The translations under genes were made by a program, and so were the position numbers. Below are positions 824 to 38,843 of a stretch of DNA of 46,657 nucleotides, piece by piece. The DNA is from an uncultured Candidatus Peribacteria bacterium (lineage in GTDB: Bacteria > Patescibacteriota > Gracilibacteria > BD1-5 > JAGOOR01), in NCBI GenBank assembly GCA_964630285.1, contig CAZVRL010000004.1:1-46657 (forward strand). The letters run 5' to 3'. Below the pieces are notes generated by a model. The model was not told the DNA's origin and did not search any database. It worked only from the letters and a program-made list of their open reading frames with translations. Within the stretch, counting starts at the first letter, position 1. Each line of letters starts with the position of its first letter.

Positions 824-862
824 TTTTCGTTGAGAAAAGTGGGGAATGGATATAATCGAATC

Positions 863-3800
863 ATGTCTTCTCAAATTGCATCGTATCTCTCAAAAGTTGC
901 TCAATCTCTCGCATCTGGTCATGCGACAGAACATAGTTATCGTCCTGAACTTCGAGACCTTTTTGTCGCCCTGACAAAATATAATGTCATCAATGAACCC
1001 AAGGGAAGTGAACACGGAAAACCAGATTTTATTTTCCTCTCAGGACAGTGAGCGGAGCTTTTTCCTGTAGCGTATGGGGAAGCAAAGGATATACACGTCA
1101 ATCTTGAAAAGACGACTAAAAGTGAACAGCTTGCACGATATTTCGGATATGCCAGGTTGATACTCACAAATGGTATTGAGTTTCGATTCTTCAAAAATGG
1201 TTCGCCTTATGGTGAGCCAGTTATACTTGCGACAAAAGATGGAAGTGTTTTAAAACTCCACGAAGAAAAATTTAATGTTTTTGTTGATACGCTCTCTGCA
1301 TTTCTCACTGAATCGGTTGACTCAATTCGTTCGTCGAAACACCTCGCACAAATCATGGGGGGTAAGGCTCGACGCATCCGTGACAATCTCCGCGAAATGC
1401 TCACCGAAGTAAATCGTACAGCAGGAAAATATGCAGATATATTCGCACTCTATGATATTTTCAAAAAAGAAATTCTTCATGATTTGGATTATCACAACTT
1501 CGCAGACCTCTATGCTCAGACGCTCGTCTATGGACTCTTCGTCGCACGATACAATGATACAACGCCAGAGAATTTTACACGTTCAGAGGCTCGTGACCTC
1601 GTCCCAAAAAGTAATCCACTTCTCCGAAAATTCTTCGACCATATAGCAGGTGAGGGATTTGAGAAACGACTCGGATATATCGTCGATGAACTCTGTGAAG
1701 TCTTTGCTCATGCAGATGTACGAGCACTGATGCATGGACTCTACCAAAAAGCGGATATCGAGACACACGATCCTGTGATTCATTTCTATGAAGACTTCCT
1801 CGGAGAATATGATGCGAGCATGCGAAAGCAGCGATGAGTCTTCTATACTCCTGCACCAGTCGTACGATTTATTGTGCGGGCTGTGGATGATATTCTCAAG
1901 ACTCATTTCTGACTCAAGAGAGGGCTTGCTGACACGAGCAAAATCAAACACGAGACGATGGGGCATGTGACCGACAAACGAGGAAAAATGTCGACAAAAT
2001 CCCTCACAGAAGAAGTTCATCGTGTGCAAATCCTCGACCCTGCCACAGGAACAGGAACATTTCTCAATGAAGTTATCAGACACATTCACGGAAGTATGAA
2101 AGACCAAGCGGGAATATGGCCATCCTATGTCCAAAATGACCTCATCCCACGACTTCACGGATTTGAGCTGATGATGGCGAGCTACACTATCGCACATCTG
2201 AAACTCTGACTCACGCTTGCAGAAACTGGCGTCTCTGAACTCGACCAGCGTCTCCAAGTCTATCTCACCAACTCTCTCGAAGAAGCAAAGACCAATCGTG
2301 AGACACAAGGTACTCTCTTCTGACTTGCTGAGAGTATCACAAGAGAGGGGCAGTATGCTGATGAGGTGAAAGCGGATAAGCCTGTGATGGTAATTGTCGG
2401 CAATCCTCCGTACTCTGTGAGTAGCTCAAATACTGGACCATGGATTCTTAATCTTATAAAAGACTACAAACAGTGACTCTGAGAGAAGAAGATAAATCTC
2501 GATGACGACTACATAAAATTTATACGATTCTGAGAAGATCTTATAGAAAAAAATGGAGAATGAGTTCTCGCTTATATCTCAAATAATTCATTCATTTGAG
2601 GCATTACACATCGACAAATGAGAAAACATCTGATGCAAACGTTTGATGAAATTTATATTCTTGATTTACATGGGAATTCAAGAAATTTAGATATAAACCC
2701 GAATGGCTGAGTAGATGAAAATGTTTTTGATATAATGCAGGGCGTAAGTATTAATATTTTTATAAAGAAAAAGAATAAAGAATTAAAAAATCTTGCGGGT
2801 ATTTTTCATTTGGATCTTTACTGAAAGAGGGATTTAAAATATAAATGGCTTGAAGAAAATTCAATTGATAATTTTAAGAAACTAACTGTTGAAGATCCTT
2901 ATTATTTCTTTGTTCCAAAAGATTTCTCAGGTCAAGAAGAATATGAAAAATTCTTTTGAGTGGAAGAGCTATTTTGATTATTCTGTTCATGAGTTCAGAC
3001 AGATAGAGACCCCCTATTTATAGAAAATAATAAGAATACTCTTACTAGTAGAATTCAAGTTCTTTTATCGAAAAATTATTCTCAGGAGTTTGCGACTCAA
3101 TATAATATAAAAGATTCATCAGGATATAATTTGATTTCAAGAATTAATAATTCTAACTTTAATGAATCAAATATTCAAAAAATTAATTATAGGCCTTTTG
3201 ACACAAGGTTTATATATTATGACCCAAAACTTATCAGCCGTGCTGGTTATGAATCTAACAAAAATTTACTAAAAGAGAATATTGGATTGATAGCTAAGAG
3301 GGGTTTTGATGAATGAAAAACTTCCCCATGCTTTGTAACAAAAAATATTTCCGATCGTCGTGGCTGGAGCCGTCCGTGAATGCAATGAGCAGAGCAAATT
3401 TTTCCTCTTTATCTTTACTCTGATTCAGAGAATTTGGAGAATCAGACACGAACACCGAATCTGAACGAGACGATTTGGTCAGCGATTAATGCGATTGTCG
3501 GTGAGACGACACCAGAGCAGATTTTAGATTATATTTATGCCGTGCTTCATTCACCATTGTACCGTGAGAAATACAAAGAGTTTCTAAAGATTGATTTCCC
3601 ACGAGTACCATATCCGCGAGATCGTGAGAGTTTCCTCGCGCTTGTCGCATTTGGTGGAGAGCTTCGGGCTTTGCATCTCCTAGAGTCTTCAAAAGTAGAG
3701 GATTTTATCACTTCCTATCCTGTTGCAGGAGATAATGTGGTGGAGAATGTTAAATATGTTGATGAAAAAGTATTTATCAATCCAACGCAATACTTCGGTG

Positions 3801-3982
3801 GCGTTTCAGAGTCTGTCTGGGCTCATCCGATAGGTGGTTATATGCCTGCTCAGAAATGGCTCAAAGACCGCAAAGGTCGTACACTGACCAATGATGACAT
3901 CATGCACTATCAGCGAATGATTGTCGCCCTTTCTGAAACTGCGAGAGTGATGGAGGAGGTGGATAGAGTTATTAAGATTTAA
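863..3982 (+). CDS. Type IIG/IIL restriction-modification fusion: N-terminal PD-(D/E)xK nuclease, gamma-class N6-adenine methyltransferase, C-terminal specificity domain
   Basis: Five ORF-track fragments of >=60 aa (830, 1157, 1958, 3131, 3434), all in frame 2, plus shorter pieces, join only through TGA. Motifs seen: KPDFIF...GEAKD (nuclease), RKQR-TGA-VFYTP, DPATGTGTF (motif I), VGNPPY (motif IV). Alternative TTG start at 830. Confidence 0.85.
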
Positions 3983-30246: not shown

Positions 30247-30795
30247 ATGCATTTTTCTGCTCCATCAGATCCTCTGATTTATTCTTTTCTCCTTCGCCGT
30301 GAAGAATTTCAGGGTGCAGAGAGACTCATTGTTGAAACGCGTATTCAGGGAGAAAAACTCTTACAAACACTCGAAGCACTCGAAAAAATATCATCAACCA
30401 ATAGACATTATCGCCTCATTACAACACCAGTAGATATTCTGGAAGTGGAGCATGATGCACATATTGTCGGGATATTCCCGATTGAGACACTGGATTGGAA
30501 AGTGAGCCCAAAAGAAAAAGAAAATTATTGCCTAGAACTCGAAAAGTGAACAAAATATGGTGAAGAAAAGCTTATCTCATGGCTTACGGAACATGGCTAT
30601 ATTGCTCGTAAATCGGATGAAATAGGGACCTATTTCCGAGCGGGCGATACGGTCTCGCTTCCACTCAAAAAAGGGATTCTCCGTGTGAGTTTCTTTGGAA
30701 CGATGCTCGAAGACCTCTTCCTCGATGACGTCTCTATTACTTCTGCTCGGATTTATTCACTGCTTCCAGCACTTCCTGCGGGACAAACTTCATAA
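30247..30795 (+). CDS. mfd: Transcription-repair coupling factor Mfd, N-terminal fragment (UvrB-homology module) as a separate ORF
   Basis: LELEK-TGA-TKYGEEKLISWLTEHGYIARKSDEIGTYFRAGDTVSL...LRVSFFGTMLEDLFLDDV...SLLPA parallels E. coli Mfd (KKGQRL...AGYRHV...GEYATRG...RLDFFDDEIDSLRVFD...LLPA). TAA at 30793-30795. Confidence 0.7.
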
Positions 30796-31018
30796 ATATC
30801 CAGATAAGAAGAGGGATGACGACAATATCATCTGCGAGTCCGAAAAACAGTATAAAATCTGGCAGAGCATCCATCGGCATGATGACGTACCCGAGTATCC
30901 CGAGAGAGAGGAGGAGTTTTGTTGTGAGAGGCGTTTTTGGATGTCGAAAGGCTTTCCAGGCGTGGCCGAGTTTCTTTTTGACGTTTTTAAATCGAGAAAG
31001 AAGGTGAAAAAATTTCAT
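30737..31018 (-). CDS. YkvA/DUF1232 family membrane protein
   Basis: YVIMPMDALPDFILFFGLADDIVV signature. Its 3' end overlaps the end of the mfd N fragment by 59 nt (convergent). Confidence 0.7.
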   Translation of the reverse strand: MKFFHLLSRFKNVKKKLGHAWKAFRHPKTPLTTKLLLSLGILGYVIMPMDALPDFILFFGLADDIVVIPLLIWIFMKFVPQEVLEAVNKSEQK

Positions 31019-31030
31019 AATAGAGAGTTA

Positions 31031-31579
31031 CTATTCGCCCTTCATCGTCGCGAGCTTCTCGAGTTCGAGGAGAGTTTTCCAGTTTCTCGTTGTGGCAGTC
31101 ACAGCGAGTTTTCTCTCAAAGAACATGGTTGAAAACTTTGTCATGCCATATCCATCAGGGCAGTAGAGATAGATGATGGTATTATCGATGTGAAATTCAT
31201 CGCTCTGAAATTTCTCATCTCGAGTTGTCTCGAGGAGTTTTTTCTCAGGCATGCTGTCGAGAAAGGTGACATGCAGTTTTGAGGCGTCTTTTTTCCCGTC
31301 GTTGTAGGGATTTTTTTTGATAATTTTTTCCACTTCTTCTCCTGTGAGGATAAGAAGAGGTACTGCAAAGCCATAGTGTTTTTCGATCACTTCGCCGATA
31401 TCTTTTGTAAGTGTTTTTTTACTTGTCTCACTGCTTTTGAACACTATATTTCCACTCTGGATATAGGTCATGACGTTTTCGTAACCTGCTTTGATAAGGA
31501 GCGCTTTGAGGTCTTTCATGGCAATCATTCTCTGTCCACTGACGTTGATTCCACGGAGGAGTGCTATATAGGTATTCAT
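31031..31579 (-). CDS. DUF1697 family protein
   Basis: YIALLRGINVSGQRMIAMKDLKALL...YIQSGNIVF is the typical DUF1697 N-terminus. Confidence 0.8.
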   Translation of the reverse strand: MNTYIALLRGINVSGQRMIAMKDLKALLIKAGYENVMTYIQSGNIVFKSSETSKKTLTKDIGEVIEKHYGFAVPLLILTGEEVEKIIKKNPYNDGKKDASKLHVTFLDSMPEKKLLETTRDEKFQSDEFHIDNTIIYLYCPDGYGMTKFSTMFFERKLAVTATTRNWKTLLELEKLATMKGE

Positions 31580-31615
31580 GCGGGGAGTATACTTGATTTT
31601 CCTAAACCTGGTAAT

Positions 31616-32569
31616 CTAGTTCTGAATCAGGTAAACGATGTATCCGCTATACACCATGATAAATACAACACCCTGCCATCGCTCGAGTTTGTTTTTCTGA
31701 CCGATAAAGAGAGCGAGGAAGAGTACAATTGTCGCTATCACACACATCAGAATATCAGCAAAACTACTTGCACCGAGTGAGACAGGATTTATGAGCGCAG
31801 AGAAACCAAGAATCCAGAAAATGTTAAATATATTTGAGCCGACAATGTTTCCGACTGCTATATCGTTTTGACCTTTGCGAGCGGCAACGATGGAGGTGAC
31901 GAGTTCGGGCATTGATGTCCCGATAGCGACGATGGTGAGTCCTATGACACGTTCTGACATACCGAGATGTTTTGCTATATCGACAGCACCATCGACAAAC
32001 ATTTTTCCACCGATCATGAGCCCAGCCAGACCCCCAAGTATCATCGAAAGAGAAACTAAATTGCTATATTTTGTGATACCTGTATCTTCGTTTTCCTCTG
32101 ACTTACTGATATTTGCGACGTAGTAGAGGAATATGATAAAGAAGAAGATAAGAATAACACCATCGCCCTGGCTAATGATATTTTTGTCCCCTTGACCAAA
32201 GTAGACATCCGCACCGAGAAATCCTACTGCGAGAATAGCGAGGAGTGAAAATGGTATCTCTTTCCAGGCGGTAGAATGTTTTACTGGCAGGAGCGAGAGG
32301 ACACTCGTGATTCAGAGAATGAGGAGGATATTTGCTGTATTTGATCCGACGACGTTACCGAGAGTGATATCACTTTTTCCTTGCAAGCTTGCAAAGACAC
32401 TGACTGTGAGTTCAGGAAGAGACGTACCAAATGCGACGACGGTCAAACCGATCACGAGGCTCGATACTCCAAAACGCTTGGCGATAGAGGCGGAACCCAT
32501 AACGAGATAATCAGCTCCTTTGACGAGGATAGCGAGCCCAACTGCTACGAGAAGAAAAGGTATAATCAT
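31616..32569 (-). CDS. Ca2+/cation antiporter (CaCA, YrbG-like)
   Basis: Two alpha-repeats: GLTVVAFGTSLPELTVS...GNVVGSN and GLTIVAIGTSMPELVTS...GNIVGSNIFN. ORFs 32312..32569 and 31616..32044 are in frame. Confidence 0.8.
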
Positions 32570-32600
32570 AGTTAGGATGATGATAGTTTAAATTTGCGAT

Positions 32601-33542
32601 TTATTTTACGAGGTCTGAGATATGTTTGTGATCTTTTGAAGGGAAGAGAACAGAAGCGAGGATAGAGAGCGTGAGACAACCGACGATAACTCCGAGAGAG
32701 ACGAGTATATCGACGTGATAGTATCCTGAGATGAGCATCTTTGTACCGACGAATGCGAGGACAGCTGAGAGACCGTATTTGAGATAGACGAAATTTCCCA
32801 TCATACCAGCGAGAGCAAAATAGAGAGAACGGAGACCAAGAATGGCAAAGATATTACTCGTGTAGACGATAAACATATCGTGAGAGATAGCGAGAACCGC
32901 TGGGATAGAGTCGAGTGCGAAGACGAGGTCAGTGAACTCGATCATGAGGAGCGCTACGAGCATCGGTGTTGCTGCACGTTTTGCGTTCTGCATAGTGAGA
33001 AATTTCCCGCCATCCATCTCTTTTGAGATAGGCATGATTTTTTTGAGAAGTCTCACGATGAGCTTTCGTTCGAATTCGATTTCTTCTTTGCTTTCAAAGA
33101 GCATCTTGATAGCTGTCACGATGAGGAACCCACCGAAGACATAGATAACAAAATGAAACGCTTCAAGTATCTGTATACCAACGGCAATCATCACTGCACG
33201 CATCACGAGGGCTCCGAGAATACCCCAGAAGAGGATTTTGTGCTGATAGAGTTTCCCGATTTTGAAATACGAGAATATCATGATAAAGACAAACAAGTTA
33301 TCCACGCTGAGGGATTTTTCCATCACGTACGCTGTCACGAACTGGAGCGCTTTCTCACCTCCGAACCAATGAGCTACGAGCCCAGAAAATACAGCCGCAA
33401 GACCTATCCAGACACCACTCCAAATGAGAGCTTCTTTTGTTTTTATTTCGTGAGCCTTTTTGTTAAATATTCCCAAATCGAGAGCGAGCATCACAAAGAC
33501 GAAGACGATAAACCCGACCCAGAAAACTCATTGTGTATCCAT
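32601..33542 (-). CDS. TerC/Alx family integral membrane protein
   Basis: EKSLSVDNLFVFIMIF and FALDSIPAVLAIS motifs. ATG 33542 is in frame through one TGA. Confidence 0.8.
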
Positions 33543-33619
33543 AAAAGGGAATAATTAAAATAACTCGTACATCCTATGAGTTTGTCTGGATTTTCAATAT
33601 TACTTTTCTATAACCGATA

Positions 33620-34006
33620 CTAATATCGAATTGGTTGGAATCCCTGATTGATGAGATAGATTCCTATGATGATCATGATGATAAGTGATACCCTGATTCT
33701 GTGTGCTGAATTGTAGAATTTTACGAGTCTCTGTGTGTAGTGAGGAGCGAGGAGACGAACAATACCCTTGAGGAGGATGAGCCATCCGATGAGTGTGATG
33801 ATAACAGTCCAGTCAGTCCAAGTATTGTAGAGCAATATGTGTGCTACTCCGAGCATGAGCGTACCATAACCCAAGAGGATAACCATACCATCTTCCTGTA
33901 CGAGCTTGAGGAGCGTGACGACACTTTCGCGATTGATCATGAGTGTTATGCCTGTGAGGACAAAGACGATGCCCCAGAACTGTGCGAGAAAAATAGGTGT
34001 GTCCAT
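33620..34006 (-). CDS. Small polytopic membrane protein (128 aa)
   Basis: Uninterrupted ORF with four hydrophobic spans. Confidence 0.5.
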   Translation of the reverse strand: MDTPIFLAQFWGIVFVLTGITLMINRESVVTLLKLVQEDGMVILLGYGTLMLGVAHILLYNTWTDWTVIITLIGWLILLKGIVRLLAPHYTQRLVKFYNSAHRIRVSLIIMIIIGIYLINQGFQPIRY

Positions 34007-34063
34007 ACGAAAGATATTATATATTTACTCATATCGTATGAGTTTATTGCGATTTTCAATGAT

Positions 34064-34771
34064 TTATCGTACTTCCGTTCCACCCCACTCGACGACACTA
34101 AATCCTTTTCGTTCAAAAGACGAAAGTGATTGCACTGGTATATCTATTTTTTCTGTGAGAGGTTTGAAAACCATAAAGACACGGAGGAGAGACTCTGGTG
34201 TTGGTGTGATTGTCAGAGGTGCAGTGTCGGTATATTCTTTGCCTGCAAAATGGATGAGATTGTAGGGGTTATTTTTCATAAGCGGATACCAGTACACGAT
34301 AAATTCATTGTATTCTCGTGGAGTCAGCCCCAGCTTGGCGAGTTTTTCTTGGAGAAAAGAAATCGTATCTTCCGCGCGTACGACAAAACCTGTTGAGAGA
34401 TTCCAATCATGATTGTAGAGACCCTCCCAGAAGAGATAACTATATTCTCGTCCATCAGCGTGATTGGTGAGTGTGCCGTCAGGCTCTGCTGTCACAGCCC
34501 AACCGTTGTTGTAGGTTGGATATGTCGCGATAAGCTCACCATTGAAATCGAGTTTTACCTCCACGTTTGTTGTTTTCTCCGGGTAGAGATAGATAACAGG
34601 TTTTCCTGCCATCATCACATCGTTTTCATCAATATAAAATGGGAAATCTTCTTTTTGTTCTGGCTCTAAATAGCTGATATGCAAAGTATTTGGAAGAATG
34701 CTCTTTTTTACAGCGAATCCGTAGGCACCGATAGCGCCGACGAGGAGAATTAGGAGGATGATTTTTTTCAT
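34064..34771 (-). CDS. Secreted/anchored hypothetical protein (235 aa)
   Basis: Signal/anchor MKKIILLILLVGAIGAYGF. Conserved-looking KPVIYLYP and YSYLFWEG blocks. Confidence 0.6.
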   Translation of the reverse strand: MKKIILLILLVGAIGAYGFAVKKSILPNTLHISYLEPEQKEDFPFYIDENDVMMAGKPVIYLYPEKTTNVEVKLDFNGELIATYPTYNNGWAVTAEPDGTLTNHADGREYSYLFWEGLYNHDWNLSTGFVVRAEDTISFLQEKLAKLGLTPREYNEFIVYWYPLMKNNPYNLIHFAGKEYTDTAPLTITPTPESLLRVFMVFKPLTEKIDIPVQSLSSFERKGFSVVEWGGTEVR

Positions 34772-34776
34772 AGTTT

Positions 34777-35262
34777 TTATTCGTTTGATTCTATTTTAAT
34801 AATATTTCCGTTTTTATCGACCCATAAAATCATACCAGGAACCGTATATCATTTTTTGTTATATTCTCGTATTTCTCCTATTCATCCATGTGATGTATAG
34901 AAAAAATCTAATGTCTCTGAGATATTTTTTCCAACGAGATACTGATATTCCTGAGGATCGAAATAGCTGATATGTGTCATCTCGTAGTGTATCTTGTGAG
35001 AGATATATAACATCCCAATCATGAGAATTGGTATCAATACGAGGATGATATGTTTCCGTGTTCTTCTAAAAAAGAGTGTCAGGAGAAGACCTATGACATA
35101 GAGGGGTAACACTATCACTCCTGCAAAAATCCCCAGCGCGATACCATCTCCAGCATCTTGTGATGGCTGTGTTGATAACCAGAGGACTCATACGAGGAGG
35201 ACTATCACCAGAATCTGTATCACGAGGGTGATGGTGGAGAGAAGGGAAGAGGATTTTTTCAT
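34777..35262 (-). CDS. Membrane protein (161 aa)
   Basis: ATG at 35262. Three in-frame TGA were translated through. TAA at 34777-34779, 5 nt above the next gene start. Confidence 0.5.
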
Positions 35263-35289
35263 GGAGAAAGTATATTTATTTTATTTTTC

Positions 35290-35318
35290 TTTGTACTTTT
35301 GGTGGCAAAAGTACCCAA
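35290..35318 (-). promoter_or_regulatory. Promoter (TTGGGT-17-TACAAA) containing the dyad GTACTTTTG-N4-CAAAAGTAC; second copy of the 7988-8015 element
   Basis: Dyad at 35293-35314. TTGTACTTTTGgtgGCAAAAGTACCCAAAAC here versus TTGTACTTTTGattGCAAAAGTACCAAAAC at 7989. Confidence 0.35.
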
Positions 35319-35424
35319 AACCACCGAAAGCAAATAAACTCGCTCTCCACTTCAGCAACTTCAATTCTGCATTCACGACGCTCAGGCAGTATTTGCTCTC
35401 GGACTCTCGCTTCTGTTTTTCTTA

Positions 35425-36348
35425 CTATTTCACTAGACCAATAAAATCTCCATCAATTGTAAATTTTCCATTTGCATATTCAGTCATAACAGCTCAAAAA
35501 GAATTTGTTCATCTATATTTCATAGCCACTAAAATATAATCACCCTTATCTTCATACCTTGTTTCTACATGTTTAAAGCTATCAGGATTTTTTAGGCTCT
35601 CTTGTATCATTCTACTAAATGCGATATGTTTTCCATCCCATGCTGAAAATTGTTTTTCTATCTTAGCTTTTCTTTCTTGTTGTGTTTTTATTTTTAATTC
35701 AGCGAGTTTATTTTGAGTTTCAACAAGCTCTTGTTCTTTTTTTATTTTCTCTGCAAGTTGTTTATTTTTTTCAACTTCTTCCAAGAAATCCTGTCTTAAG
35801 TGTAAATTTTCTTCTAATTTTTTTAAGAACAAGGAATTTATATTTTCATTTTCAATGAAAACTGTTTTAAGTTCTTTTACTTTTAGTAATTCAATTTCCG
35901 CATTTGTTATTTCAATGAGTGATTTTTTGAGAAAATCTTCTGACTCAAGCTTATTTACATTTTCTTCTAATTTGATAGCAGGATTATTTGATATATTAAA
36001 TTTTTGTTTAGATTCTGAAAGAACTTTCTTAGCTTCTTCTATTTTTCATTCTTTTAAGTAACTTTGAGCAATTTCCTGCATTTTGTACATTTCTTTTGTG
36101 CTACTTGCCCCAGCAATAGTTCCTATGATTACTAGAAGTGTAATAAATCATAGAATGGTTGTTATGGTTATCTTTATTTGTTTGCTCCAATTAGCCTTTT
36201 TCCACATTAAAAATAACAAAATTCCCGGAGATAAAATTAGTAAAATAGGTAATAGTATTATACCTACTCAAAATAAAAATGGTGATAATATTACTGCAAC
36301 TATAATAAACCACGTTTCTTTATACCAAGGTTTTTTTGTTGTTTTCAT
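35425..36348 (-). CDS. Membrane-anchored coiled-coil protein with a conserved C-terminal globular domain (307 aa)
   Basis: ATG at 36348 (MKTTKKPWYKETWFIIVAVIL). Translated through five TGA to TAG at 35425-35427. C-terminus SAWDGKH...NPDSFKHVET...YR-TGA-TNSF-TGA-AV. Confidence 0.55.
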
Positions 36349-36422
36349 AAAAGGGAAAAATAAAAGAATTTTGCTTGTTCGTATAAATTCTATAAAGTCT
36401 CCACATAAAGCAATCCCAATTA

Positions 36423-38843
36423 ATGCCTCAAAAACAACCACAATCTCTGGCTCTCTGACTCGATTTCGCACCTGATTTTGAGAGGATTCGTCGTGAATAT
36501 TCGCCGATAGAGATAAACCAGATAGCCAATCCTGAGCATCCTCCTGTGGGGATCGAGTATGTCGAATGTGATACGCTTTCGGAGCTGGTGGAGTTCTTAC
36601 ATGACTTCCAAGAGAAAAGAGAGGAGAAGTGAGTAAATCTCACTTCGAGTAGAAAAGAGAAAAAATGAGGAATCCTTGTTTTAACGAAACAAACACCTGT
36701 GATGGAGAAGTTTTGTGCGGATAATGAGATAGAAGCACGGATTCATGCGTGGAAACTCTGAGGTCCGTCGTTTGTTCTGGATGGCCAATGTGTCATTACT
36801 GATGAGCTGATTTGACCACTCTTGGGTGGAGTCTTTCGACGGAAGAAGCGGCCGCAACTCGATTTGCTCGTGCAGATAAAGGCGGGTGATCCTGTGGTGC
36901 ACCTTTTTCATGGTGTGGGGATATTTCAATGAATCGTCCGAAATACGTTGTCATGAACGGAGCGCGAATATATCGAGATAGAATATGCGGAGAAGGATAG
37001 GCTCTTTGTGCCGGTCGAGGAGCTTCATCGTGTGAGCAAATTTGTCGGAGAGACGACACCTACTTTAACAAGATTAGGAAGCCCTGCGTGGAAGCTGATC
37101 CTCGCAAAAACAAATGAGGAAATCCAAAATATTGCAGAAGAACTCCTCGCGAATCATGCGGCTCGTCGTATGGCTGGAGGTGTGTCGATGATGGACTTTC
37201 CTGAAAAAGAAGAGACATTTCATGTCGCATTTTCACATAAGCACACGCTCGATCAAGAAGAGGCGATTCACGGAATCATGGCCGATATGAATAGTGAGAA
37301 ACCGATGGACAGGCTCCTCTCAGGTGATGTCGGTTTTGGCAAAACAGAGGTGTCACTCCACGCGGTCTATCGTGCATTTCTGAATGAAAAACAAACCATC
37401 TTTCTCGCACCACTCGTCGTCCTCGCATACGAGCACTATGAGTCAATTCGTGAGCGTCTTAAACCGTTTGGCGTGAATGTGGCGATGATGACGCGTATGA
37501 GTACCACCAAAGAAATTAACGTAGTTCTAAAGTGACTCAAAGATGGCTCTATTCATTGTGTGATTGGGACGCACAGACTCCTCTCTCCAGATATAAAATT
37601 CAGAAATCTCGGACTCGTCGTCGTCGATGAAGAACATAAATTCGGTGTGACAGACAAAGAAAAAATTCTTCACCTCAAGGCTGGCGTCGATACGTTGGCA
37701 CTCTCTGCTACGCCGATTCCTCGCTCACTCAATCTCGCTCTCTCTGGTGTGAAAAATTTCTCAATATTATCTACTCCACCACACGGTAAAAAGCCTATCC
37801 ATACCGCAGTGGCTCGCTATGACACAGTCATCGTCAAACGCGCTATCGAAGAAGAACTCGCTCGTGGTGGCAAAGTATTTTTCGTCCACAATACCATCAA
37901 AACACTTCCCATTCTCAAGAAAGAAATCGAGTCTCTCGTGCCAAAAGCAAAAGTCGTCATCACGAATGGTCAGCTCCCGTCTGATGAACTCGAAGACCGC
38001 ATCATGGAATTCAAACTCGGTATGCACAATGTCCTCCTCACTACGACGGTGATAGAAAACGGTATCAACTTCCTCGATACCAATACGATTATCATCGATG
38101 AAGCAGAAGATTTCGGGCTCGCTCAGCTCCACCAACTCCGTGGACGTGTCGGTCGTGGACAGATCCAGGGGATCTGTTATCTCTTGTATCGACAACCAGA
38201 ACTTCAGGATGAAGCACGAGAGCGACTCATGACCATCGCGAATCATACACATCTCGGTGCAGGATTTGAGATCGCTCTCCGTGACATGGAAATTCGCTGA
38301 GTTTGAGACGTTCTCTGAGTTCGCCAATCAGGGAAGACGCGTGATGTCGGTGTGAGTTTTTATCTGAAACTGCTCGAACAAAAAATCGAAGAACTTCAGT
38401 CATGAAAAAAAGAATCAAAAGTAGATACCACGATTGATCTGCCTATCAGTGCCTACATTCCCGACGAGGCATTTAGTTCTGACATCGAGAAAATTCACTT
38501 CTACCGAGAGCTCGAATCAGTCAGGAGTGAAGAAGAACTTGCAGAAGTTATCGAACCACTCAAGACTCGTATCGATATCAAGCAATCAGCGGTCGATCAT
38601 CTCTTCTTGCTTATCCGTGCAAGACTTCGTCTCTCATCACTCGGTGTCCGTCGTGTCTTTATGCAGCTCGGGAAATATACGCTCGAATGGGGCGGGGAAG
38701 GTGAGAAAACACTCGAAGCAATGAAGCAGATTATCAAACAGGACACCAAACAATGTGCGGAAGTGATGTCAGGCAAAAAAATTACCTTCTCACGCAAAGC
38801 GTTTTTAAATCATGGAGATTTTCTCCGGTATTTTGTTGGCTAA
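36423..38843 (+). CDS. mfd: Transcription-repair coupling factor Mfd, C-terminal fragment (rest of D1b/D3, RNAP-interaction domain, translocase, D7)
   Basis: PPVGIEY (E. coli LPAGIEYW), GDPVVHLFHGVGIFQ-TGA-I, EYIEIEYAEKDRLFVPVEEL, GDVGFGKTEV, VVDEEHKFG, LSATPIPR, HQLRGRVGRG, EIR-TGA-V-TGA-DVL-TGA-VRQSG. The start codon is uncertain (ATG 36423 is the first in the open frame). Confidence 0.85.

Follow-up and report, generated by a model that had tools for sequence, protein, structure and literature searches.

A conserved split of mfd into two genes in code-25 Gracilibacteria

In the canonical single-chain Mfd, as found in E. coli (2EYQ), in Thermus (6M6A) and in the contiguous Gracilibacteria proteins P0054 and P0061, the domains are arranged in the order D1a, D2, pre-RID, RID (the RNA polymerase-interacting domain), SF2 motor and D7, and current models of its action rest on intramolecular control; the Mfds of Buchnera aphidicola, Wigglesworthia glossinidia and the Arabidopsis chloroplast, together with E. 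coli Mfd-deltaBHM, are devoid of D1a-D2 and keep RID, motor and D7 (PMC3488230, PMC13453472, PMC3025350). The present report deals with the mfd locus of an uncultured Candidatus Peribacteria bacterium, carried by a stretch of 46,657 nucleotides (contig CAZVRL010000004.1; the whole stretch is called the window in what follows). Here the canonical domain order is maintained; unlike in canonical Mfd, the chain is cut after D2, and neither the D2-D7 clamp nor the tether of the UvrA site to the motor can any longer be intramolecular. The D1a-D2 part is encoded by a gene of its own, mfdN, while the remainder, which resembles the module-less Mfds listed above, is encoded by a second gene, mfdC, located downstream on the same strand.

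In this clade mfd is split, the split is conserved, both genes are intact and both are under purifying selection. Selection has preserved the two genes intact in many related genomes, from which it follows that the split is both real and old; the probable interpretation is an ancient fission of mfd, fixed in a clade of code-25 Gracilibacteria, which gave rise to a two-polypeptide Mfd. A functional two-polypeptide protein, rather than a dead gene, had been proposed in an earlier, sequence-only reading of the same DNA, and the conservation of the split, the purifying selection and the conserved junctions described below all support that proposal.

The two open reading frames and the position of the break

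When the window is translated with code 25 (TGA = Gly), two open reading frames (ORFs) are recovered at exactly the coordinates given by the sequence-only reading:

30247..30795, + strand: mfdN, 182 aa, standalone Mfd D1a and D2, the UvrA-binding portion of the UvrB-homology module (code-25 ORF, Pfam, AlphaFold2 and Foldseek, BLASTP, and dN/dS, the ratio of non-synonymous to synonymous substitution)
36423..38843, + strand: mfdC, 806 aa, the rest of Mfd (Pfam, alignments with Thermus, E. coli and Mycobacterium Mfd, and dN/dS)

The former contains one in-frame TGA and the latter 12; if table 11 is used, both are broken up and the region is reduced to scattered short ORFs. Five of the TGA codons of MfdC (aa 170, 371, 626, 628 and 632) are aligned with Gly in Thermus Mfd, and code 25 is therefore the correct one. 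An in-frame stop codon is found 27 nt upstream of the mfdC ATG.

Many database entries derived from these genomes have been called with code 11 or 4 (P0035, P0010, P0025, P0067, P0048), the effects of which include MfdN proteins cut to 100 aa at the TGA, contiguous mfd genes falsely fragmented, and the Gly of the Walker A motif written as Trp (GFWKTE). In particular, P0067 (811 aa, starting at the LDF motif) was considered as an independent split and rejected, the gene being contiguous under code 25 and the apparent split an artefact of table-11 gene calling.

The assignment of the longer ORF to the remainder of Mfd is borne out by the Pfam profiles CarD_TRCF_RID (PF02559, aa 153-208, E 1e-17), which marks the RID and aligns with E. 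coli RID structures, DEAD (PF00270) and Helicase_C (PF00271), which together cover the SF2 motor (aa 277-578), and TRCF (PF03461, aa 673-759, E 5e-10), which corresponds to D7. MfdC aligns with residues 296-911 of Thermus Mfd (E 1e-141, 475 bits), RecG being the next family, and its alignment with the E. coli protein begins at residue 473 of the latter; by BLASTP, its aa 5-806 align with aa 203-999 of P0054, and its identity to contiguous Gracilibacteria Mfds such as P0054 and P0061 is 48-51%. The RID, the SF2 motor and D7 that characterize an Mfd are thus all carried by MfdC; the UvrB-homology module and the motor do not share one polypeptide, D1a-D2 being a separate ORF with its own stop codon in the window and in all the relatives examined. 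The first 40 residues of MfdC form a conserved N-terminal segment and, among split orthologues, the start position is conserved and these 40 residues are about 80% conserved. In an AlphaFold2 model of the N-terminal 129 aa of the orthologue P0050 (pLDDT 80.8), aa 42-123 (P0050 numbering) fold into a compact alpha/beta domain; from their length and the domain limits in Thermus, the ~130 aa at the start of MfdC may be a short D1b remnant plus a D3-like domain. The pre-RID domain of the window protein also contains a Lys/Glu-rich insertion (36603-36671, MfdC aa 61-83) seen only here and, in part, in the related locus L014; around aa 120 there is another variable loop, in which L011, L014 and P0051 have inserts of 40-50 aa.

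The identification of the shorter ORF as Mfd's UvrB-homology module, also claimed by the sequence-only reading, rests on converging lines of evidence. The Pfam UvrB_inter profile matches aa 96-158 of the window protein with 22.6 bits, just below the cut-off of 22.9, and scores 26.1 bits, above the cut-off, on its 92%-identical orthologue P0001; a PDB sequence search with MfdN alone returned chance matches only. The structure model was made for P0001, using AlphaFold2 with 26 family members (pLDDT 84.6, pTM 0.73); searched with Foldseek, it retrieves UvrB and the N-terminal structures of Mfd at a probability of 1.0 and an E of ~1e-8, the Mfd matches being the N-terminal regions of the E. coli (2b2n, 3hjh), M. 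smegmatis and M. tuberculosis proteins, and it also matches the isolated D2 or UvrA-binding domain structures 3fpn_B and 4dfc. In BLASTP, a contiguous Gracilibacteria Mfd of 1000 aa is matched, over its aa 21-168, by aa 13-161 of MfdN (E 5e-7). In an exhaustive search of 1.84 billion representatives, the only matches of the MfdN profile that are not standalone proteins are the N-termini of full-length Mfds, which are weak (E 1e-5 to 1e-3), and no protein of UvrB length is found among them. MfdN is therefore D1a-D2 of Mfd and not a fragment of UvrB.

In the P0001 model the structure ends near aa 170; the tail (aa 171-182) is disordered and is missing from an MfdN subgroup of 171-176 aa. The residues of E. 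coli D2 that contact UvrA are R165, R181 and F185 (PMC3025350); in the alignment, R146 and F150 of the window MfdN are the equivalents of R181 and F185, and F149 is invariant across the family.

The position of the break can be described with reference to both contiguous relatives and structures. When the N-termini of contiguous Gracilibacteria Mfds are made into a profile, it aligns to residues 92-217 of E. coli Mfd; transferred via multiple alignment, RIYSL (aa 166-170), the last structured strand in MfdN, corresponds to E. coli ~210-214, which is where the crystallised D2 construct 4dfc has its C-terminal end. Judged from these alignments, the break lies at the C-terminal edge of D2, at E. 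coli ~213. On the other side, MfdC starts ~10 residues ahead of an LGLDF motif which follows D2 in every contiguous relative. Projected onto contiguous Gracilibacteria Mfds of ~1000 aa, mfdN accounts for residues ~1-185 and mfdC for those from ~203; the two products sum to 988 aa (182 + 806), against 978 aa for Thermus Mfd. In the latter the entire D1a-D2-D1b module is contained within residues 1-191, with D3 starting at 192 (PMC13453472), and Thermus residue 296 is the counterpart of MfdC aa 130 in the alignment; the break therefore lies near the module-D3 linker of compact Mfds. The two ORFs are colinear with a single-gene orthologue, with neither overlap nor major loss, as is expected of a gene fission. 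To the sequence-only reading, no Mfd sequence appeared to be lost or duplicated at the break: nothing is indeed duplicated, but the linker is ~10-18 residues shorter than in contiguous relatives. Its equation of HPPVGIEY with LPAGIEYW of E. coli is not confirmed, the region after D2 having no detectable similarity to E. coli Mfd.

Conservation of the split and selection on the two genes

A search of 5.8 billion clusters retrieved 47 clusters related to MfdN, all of them consisting of short proteins; the strong homologues found there and among the 1.84 billion representatives are all standalone, with lengths not exceeding ~190 aa. When each GTDB species was represented by one genome, mfdN was detected in 12 species; these species loci, taken together with metagenomic contigs, make up the 21 related loci that were examined. 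In all 21 mfdN is intact, with a length of 170-188 aa and the same end point, so that the stops or frameshifts in orthologous N-terminal halves that were named beforehand as a possible refutation do not occur in these loci. mfdC lies downstream of mfdN, on the same strand and 1.3-6.7 kb away, in seven of the 21; an eighth case is a contig for which gene calls are the sole source. With the exception of the metagenomic contig pair L001/L002, every locus with sufficient sequence beyond mfdN has a truncated mfdC on that strand. The distances between the two genes are the following:

L004: 1.3 kb
contig known from gene calls only: 2.1 kb
L013: 2.3 kb
L014: 3.1 kb
L012: 3.8 kb
L011: 4.0 kb
the window: 5.6 kb
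L016: 6.5 kb
L009: 6.7 kb

The synteny of the flanks is also kept, with arginyl-tRNA synthetase (ArgRS) upstream and an HAD hydrolase and an S41 peptidase downstream. The left junction recurs in L003, L004, L015 and L016 and the right one in L004, L009, L011, L014 and L016, these loci stemming from different samples and assemblers. The comparison of contiguous and split mfd among relatives, which had been put forward as a check, hence finds the split repeatedly, with both junction positions conserved in orthologues. These observations bear on the idea that a chimeric metagenomic contig was joined at 30.7-30.8 kb or at 36.35-36.45 kb. The window is probably metagenome-assembled, and the mfdC of L009 is discordant in divergence with its neighbours, as an artefact might produce; against this stand the junctions recurring across samples and assemblers and the conserved ArgRS, HAD and S41 peptidase flanks. 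Because the architecture recurs in independent assemblies and the flanking synteny is conserved, misassembly is excluded, the chance that is left to it being negligible.

The L009 locus deserves a separate comment. Its mfdC (L009 17201-19561) is 96% identical to that of the window, with a synonymous divergence (dS) of 0.70, and the rest of the locus is far more diverged (dS of 1.32 for ArgRS, 1.58 for the CaCA gene and 2.0 for mfdN); the discordance suggests either replacement of mfdC by recombination or a chimeric contig in a metagenome-assembled genome.

Selection was evaluated with the Nei-Gojobori method under code 25. For mfdN, dN/dS is 0.18 with respect to L015 (dS 0.27) and 0.15 with respect to L016 (dS 0.78), values obtained at unsaturated dS, and for mfdC it is 0.046; neighbouring ordinary genes range from 0.02 to 0.11, the HAD gene being at 0.11. 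Both halves, for which this ratio had been proposed as a check, are well below 1, and mfdN is clearly under purifying selection, comparable with that on the ordinary genes nearby and more relaxed than that acting on the mfdC motor gene. A decaying mfd, in which the N-terminal fragment is a remnant being lost after disruption, could account for the lower conservation of the N-terminal part with respect to the C-terminal one and for the existence of two frameshifted variants in the databases; it is however very improbable in view of the mfdN ratios just given, of an intact ORF of constant length in 21 of 21 loci, of 24 invariant columns in the MfdN family alignment, of an AlphaFold2 model of the family that is confidently folded, and of an ORF that is retained even where divergence has brought identity down to 28%.

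The phylogenetic depth of the split can be gauged from more distant relatives. Other Gracilibacteria carry a contiguous mfd, with at most 51% identity to MfdC; divergent standalone MfdN-like proteins, of 28-37% identity, stop at the same point and are found in other gene contexts. The presence of these standalone homologues in other contexts indicates that the fission, or the MfdN family, is older than the immediate clade of the window. The divergent MfdN-like loci (L019 884-1180, L021 765-1027 and L022 4095-6722) lie on short contigs, on which no mfdC was found; one of the divergent genes is followed by an apparent tRNA gene and ribosomal protein L25 and another by a P-loop ORF resembling thymidylate kinase (both recognized by eye), and a third by a P-type cation ATPase.

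The intervening island

The eight minus-strand genes that the sequence-only reading placed between the halves, over 5.6 kb, are confirmed by ORFs and by Pfam, with the families then named. They are listed here with the two boundary features:

30737..30795, no strand: 3'-end overlap of mfdN and the DUF1232 gene, 59 nt, convergent; it encodes the MfdN tail (aa 171-182)
30737..31018, - strand: island gene 1, DUF1232 (YkvA-like) membrane protein, 93 aa (PF06803, E 3e-10); adjoins mfdN in relatives too
31031..31579, - strand: island gene 2, DUF1697, 182 aa (PF08002, E 1e-45); recurrent in relatives
31616..32569, - strand: island gene 3, CaCA-type Na+/Ca2+ exchanger, 317 aa (PF01699, Na_Ca_ex, E 7e-67); recurrent in relatives
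32601..33542, - strand: island gene 4, TerC-family membrane protein, 313 aa (PF03741, E 4e-50)
33620..34006, - strand: island gene 5, membrane protein of 128 aa, no significant family; homologues in the L011, L012, L014, L015 and L016 islands
34064..34771, - strand: island gene 6, 235 aa, N-terminal signal-like segment, no family; not found in other islands
34777..35262, - strand: island gene 7, membrane protein of 161 aa, no significant family; homologues in L011 and L013
35425..36348, - strand: island gene 8, membrane-anchored coiled-coil protein of 307 aa, no significant family; divergent from mfdC, and its L011 homologue adjoins mfdC
36349..36422, no strand: divergent intergenic region, 74 nt, AT-rich, with TATAAA at 36382-36387 and 36391-36396

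The overlap between mfdN and the DUF1232 gene is also present, with a length of 56-62 nt, in L003, L004, L015 and L016. The island gene families recur in differing combinations between species: the islands of L016 and of the window both hold DUF1232, DUF1697, CaCA, TerC and the 128-aa protein, and the smallest ones hold two genes, TerC being accompanied by DUF1232 in L004 and by a 244-aa protein in the contig known from gene calls only. In its behaviour the island resembles a long-standing intergenic space whose cargo comes and goes, rather than a mobile element recently inserted.

A regulated rearrangement, in which the 5.6-kb island would be excised to restore a contiguous mfd in the manner of the sigK skin or the nifD element, is suggested by halves lying on the same strand and in the correct order with an island between them. 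The absence of an integrase or transposase noted by the sequence-only reading is confirmed by Pfam for the window island, and no recombinase or integrase is found in this island or in the smallest islands of relatives; likewise, there are no direct repeats linking 30.7-30.8 kb with 36.35-36.45 kb. Moreover, mfdN has its own stop codon and tail, mfdC has its own conserved start, and the gene content of the island varies between species, all of which leave excision with a very slim chance. More generally, no splicing, intron, intein or excision machinery that could rejoin the halves was detected, and there is no Hint or intein Pfam match.

Since the opposite-strand genes preclude co-transcription with mfdN, mfdC must be transcribed from the 74-nt region 36349-36422, which falls in a 1-kb window (35501-36500) of GC 0.28. 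The ATG at 36423 and the TATAAA at 36391-36396 quoted in the sequence-only reading are present; the use of the latter as a promoter argument finds no measurable support. A scan for the sigma-70 consensus scored no site upstream of mfdC, and fewer promoter-like sites than in shuffled sequence, consensus promoter and terminator scans carrying no information for this phylum. A 26-nt motif, TGTnTnCATAAAAGGGAAnAATnAAA (plus-strand letters), is common to 33534-33559 and 36340-36365 and takes in a start codon at each site, of the TerC gene (minus strand) at the former and of island gene 8 at the latter; it may represent a shared translation-start or promoter context.

Elsewhere in the window, the 3' end of a 23S rRNA gene (1-141) is followed by a 5S rRNA gene (232-343), and the 46.7 kb contain no tRNA gene. 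The ORF at 830-3982, which has 18 in-frame TGA codons, encodes a Type ISP-like restriction-modification fusion of 1050 aa (N6_Mtase, Eco57I/MmeI methylase, Type_ISP_C). A GC-rich stretch at 6-8 kb with overlapping long ORFs consists, by eye, of ordinary-looking protein genes and has no tandem repeats.

Joint or separate action of MfdN and MfdC, and comparison with known systems

If the split arose by fission, an ancestral contiguous mfd (~1000 aa, as in other Gracilibacteria) would have been interrupted in the poorly conserved linker just past D2 by DNA that brought in opposite-strand genes and that later underwent gene gain and loss. The two genes would now be transcribed separately, mfdN from its own upstream region and mfdC from the divergent region, and their products would reassemble non-covalently into a two-subunit Mfd, in which MfdC would bind stalled RNA polymerase through the RID and translocate, and MfdN would provide the D2 docking surface for UvrA. 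Contact would probably involve the conserved segment at the N-terminus of MfdC (LALGLDFAPDFERIRREY...), whose counterpart in contiguous Mfds comes after D2, and the surface of the D2-D7 clamp.

Several observations weigh against this interpretation, of which the physical association of MfdN with MfdC and their joint action as one Mfd are the inferred part. The linkage of mfdN and mfdC is not universal, given that in the metagenomic contig pair L001/L002 no mfdC lies within 10 kb of mfdN and that the genes downstream of mfdN in the divergent loci L019-L022 are unrelated ones. MfdN diverges much faster than MfdC (53-63% versus 79-95% identity in the same genomes), and two of the 47 MfdN clusters, P0046 and P0047, look frameshifted. 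Concerning the UvrA-contacting residues, the equivalent of R181 is Leu in one MfdN subgroup, and that of R165 is Ala, an invariant Arg being found one position earlier. Finally, in Foldseek the model of the MfdC N-terminal domain (P0050) has no significant PDB match, Mfd D1b and D3 included.

Part of this evidence would be accommodated if the halves were uncoupled, MfdC being a constitutively derepressed translocase that acts alone, like the module-less Mfds named at the outset, and MfdN, which would not join MfdC, having been retained for another task, such as that of a free regulator or adaptor binding UvrA. Module-less Mfds do exist and retain D7 (PMC3488230; PMC13453472), E. coli Mfd without the module still displaces RNA polymerase (PMC3025350), and the Thermus module is mobile, not clamped (PMC13453472); in addition, MfdN evolves 3-4 times faster than MfdC, and mfdN is unlinked from mfdC in L001/L002 and set in other contexts in L019-L022. 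What argues the other way is the same order, strand and spacing of 1.3-6.7 kb maintained in eight independent contigs or loci despite island turnover, as well as the conservation of the segment at the N-terminus of MfdC, which in contiguous Mfds comes after D2. Furthermore, a free D2 bound to UvrA and untethered to RNA polymerase would be expected to inhibit repair rather than to target it, as suggested by the inhibition of the UvrA GTPase reported for derepressed Mfd (PMC3025350). On the whole, uncoupled halves, the main alternative, seem to us unlikely, if still worth serious consideration.

The fission reading, which we prefer, can be carried one step further: Mfd may have turned into a two-component system, in which MfdC would be a clamp-free general translocase or terminator of RNA polymerase and the small, fast-evolving MfdN a dosable, separately expressed adaptor, linking MfdC to UvrA only if it is present or recruited; this proposal is put forward tentatively. 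If it were true, transcription-coupled repair would be switched in trans and not by intramolecular autoinhibition, and the standalone D1a-D2 family would constitute a new class of small UvrA-binding proteins. The split itself is a natural experiment which indicates that at least one clade can do without a covalent linkage between D2 and the motor; a 2026 structure argues that the Mfd clamp is not universal (PMC13453472). It also offers natural constructs with which to ask whether the module works in trans, how it is recruited and whether the motor is constitutively active. From the standpoint of annotation, "UvrB-like" ORFs of 170-190 aa and "DEAD/DEAH helicase" calls of ~800 aa in these genomes should be regarded as a warning, for they are the two halves of an Mfd.

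Module-less Mfds and engineered truncations were known before, and a split mfd was not found in the literature: neither an account of mfd being split or fissioned nor one of Mfd in Gracilibacteria was retrieved by our searches, and an Orientia paper was set aside, its subject being the loss of mfd and not a split. The difference from the module-less Mfds is that in those the module has gone together with UvrABC, whereas here it persists in a gene of its own, under purifying selection and in most cases a few kb upstream. The 46.7-kb window showed no uvr gene. In the cyanobacterial dnaE-n/dnaE-c split intein, as in the present case, two distant ORFs encode one protein; here there is no intein, nor is there room for one, since 182 + 806 aa are to be compared with the 978-1000 aa of contiguous Mfds.

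Reverse gyrase and alanyl-tRNA synthetase of Nanoarchaeum equitans are encoded by non-contiguous split genes of an episymbiont with a reduced genome. The resemblance to mfdN and mfdC extends to the two separately transcribed ORFs in place of the single gene of other lineages, to a break placed at a domain boundary, to the conservation of the halves and to a dependent host with a small genome; the protein and the domain of life are different, and the halves of mfd are usually same-strand neighbours separated by variable cargo. With mfd, a documented conserved split gene is added to the small-genome, code-25 Gracilibacteria.

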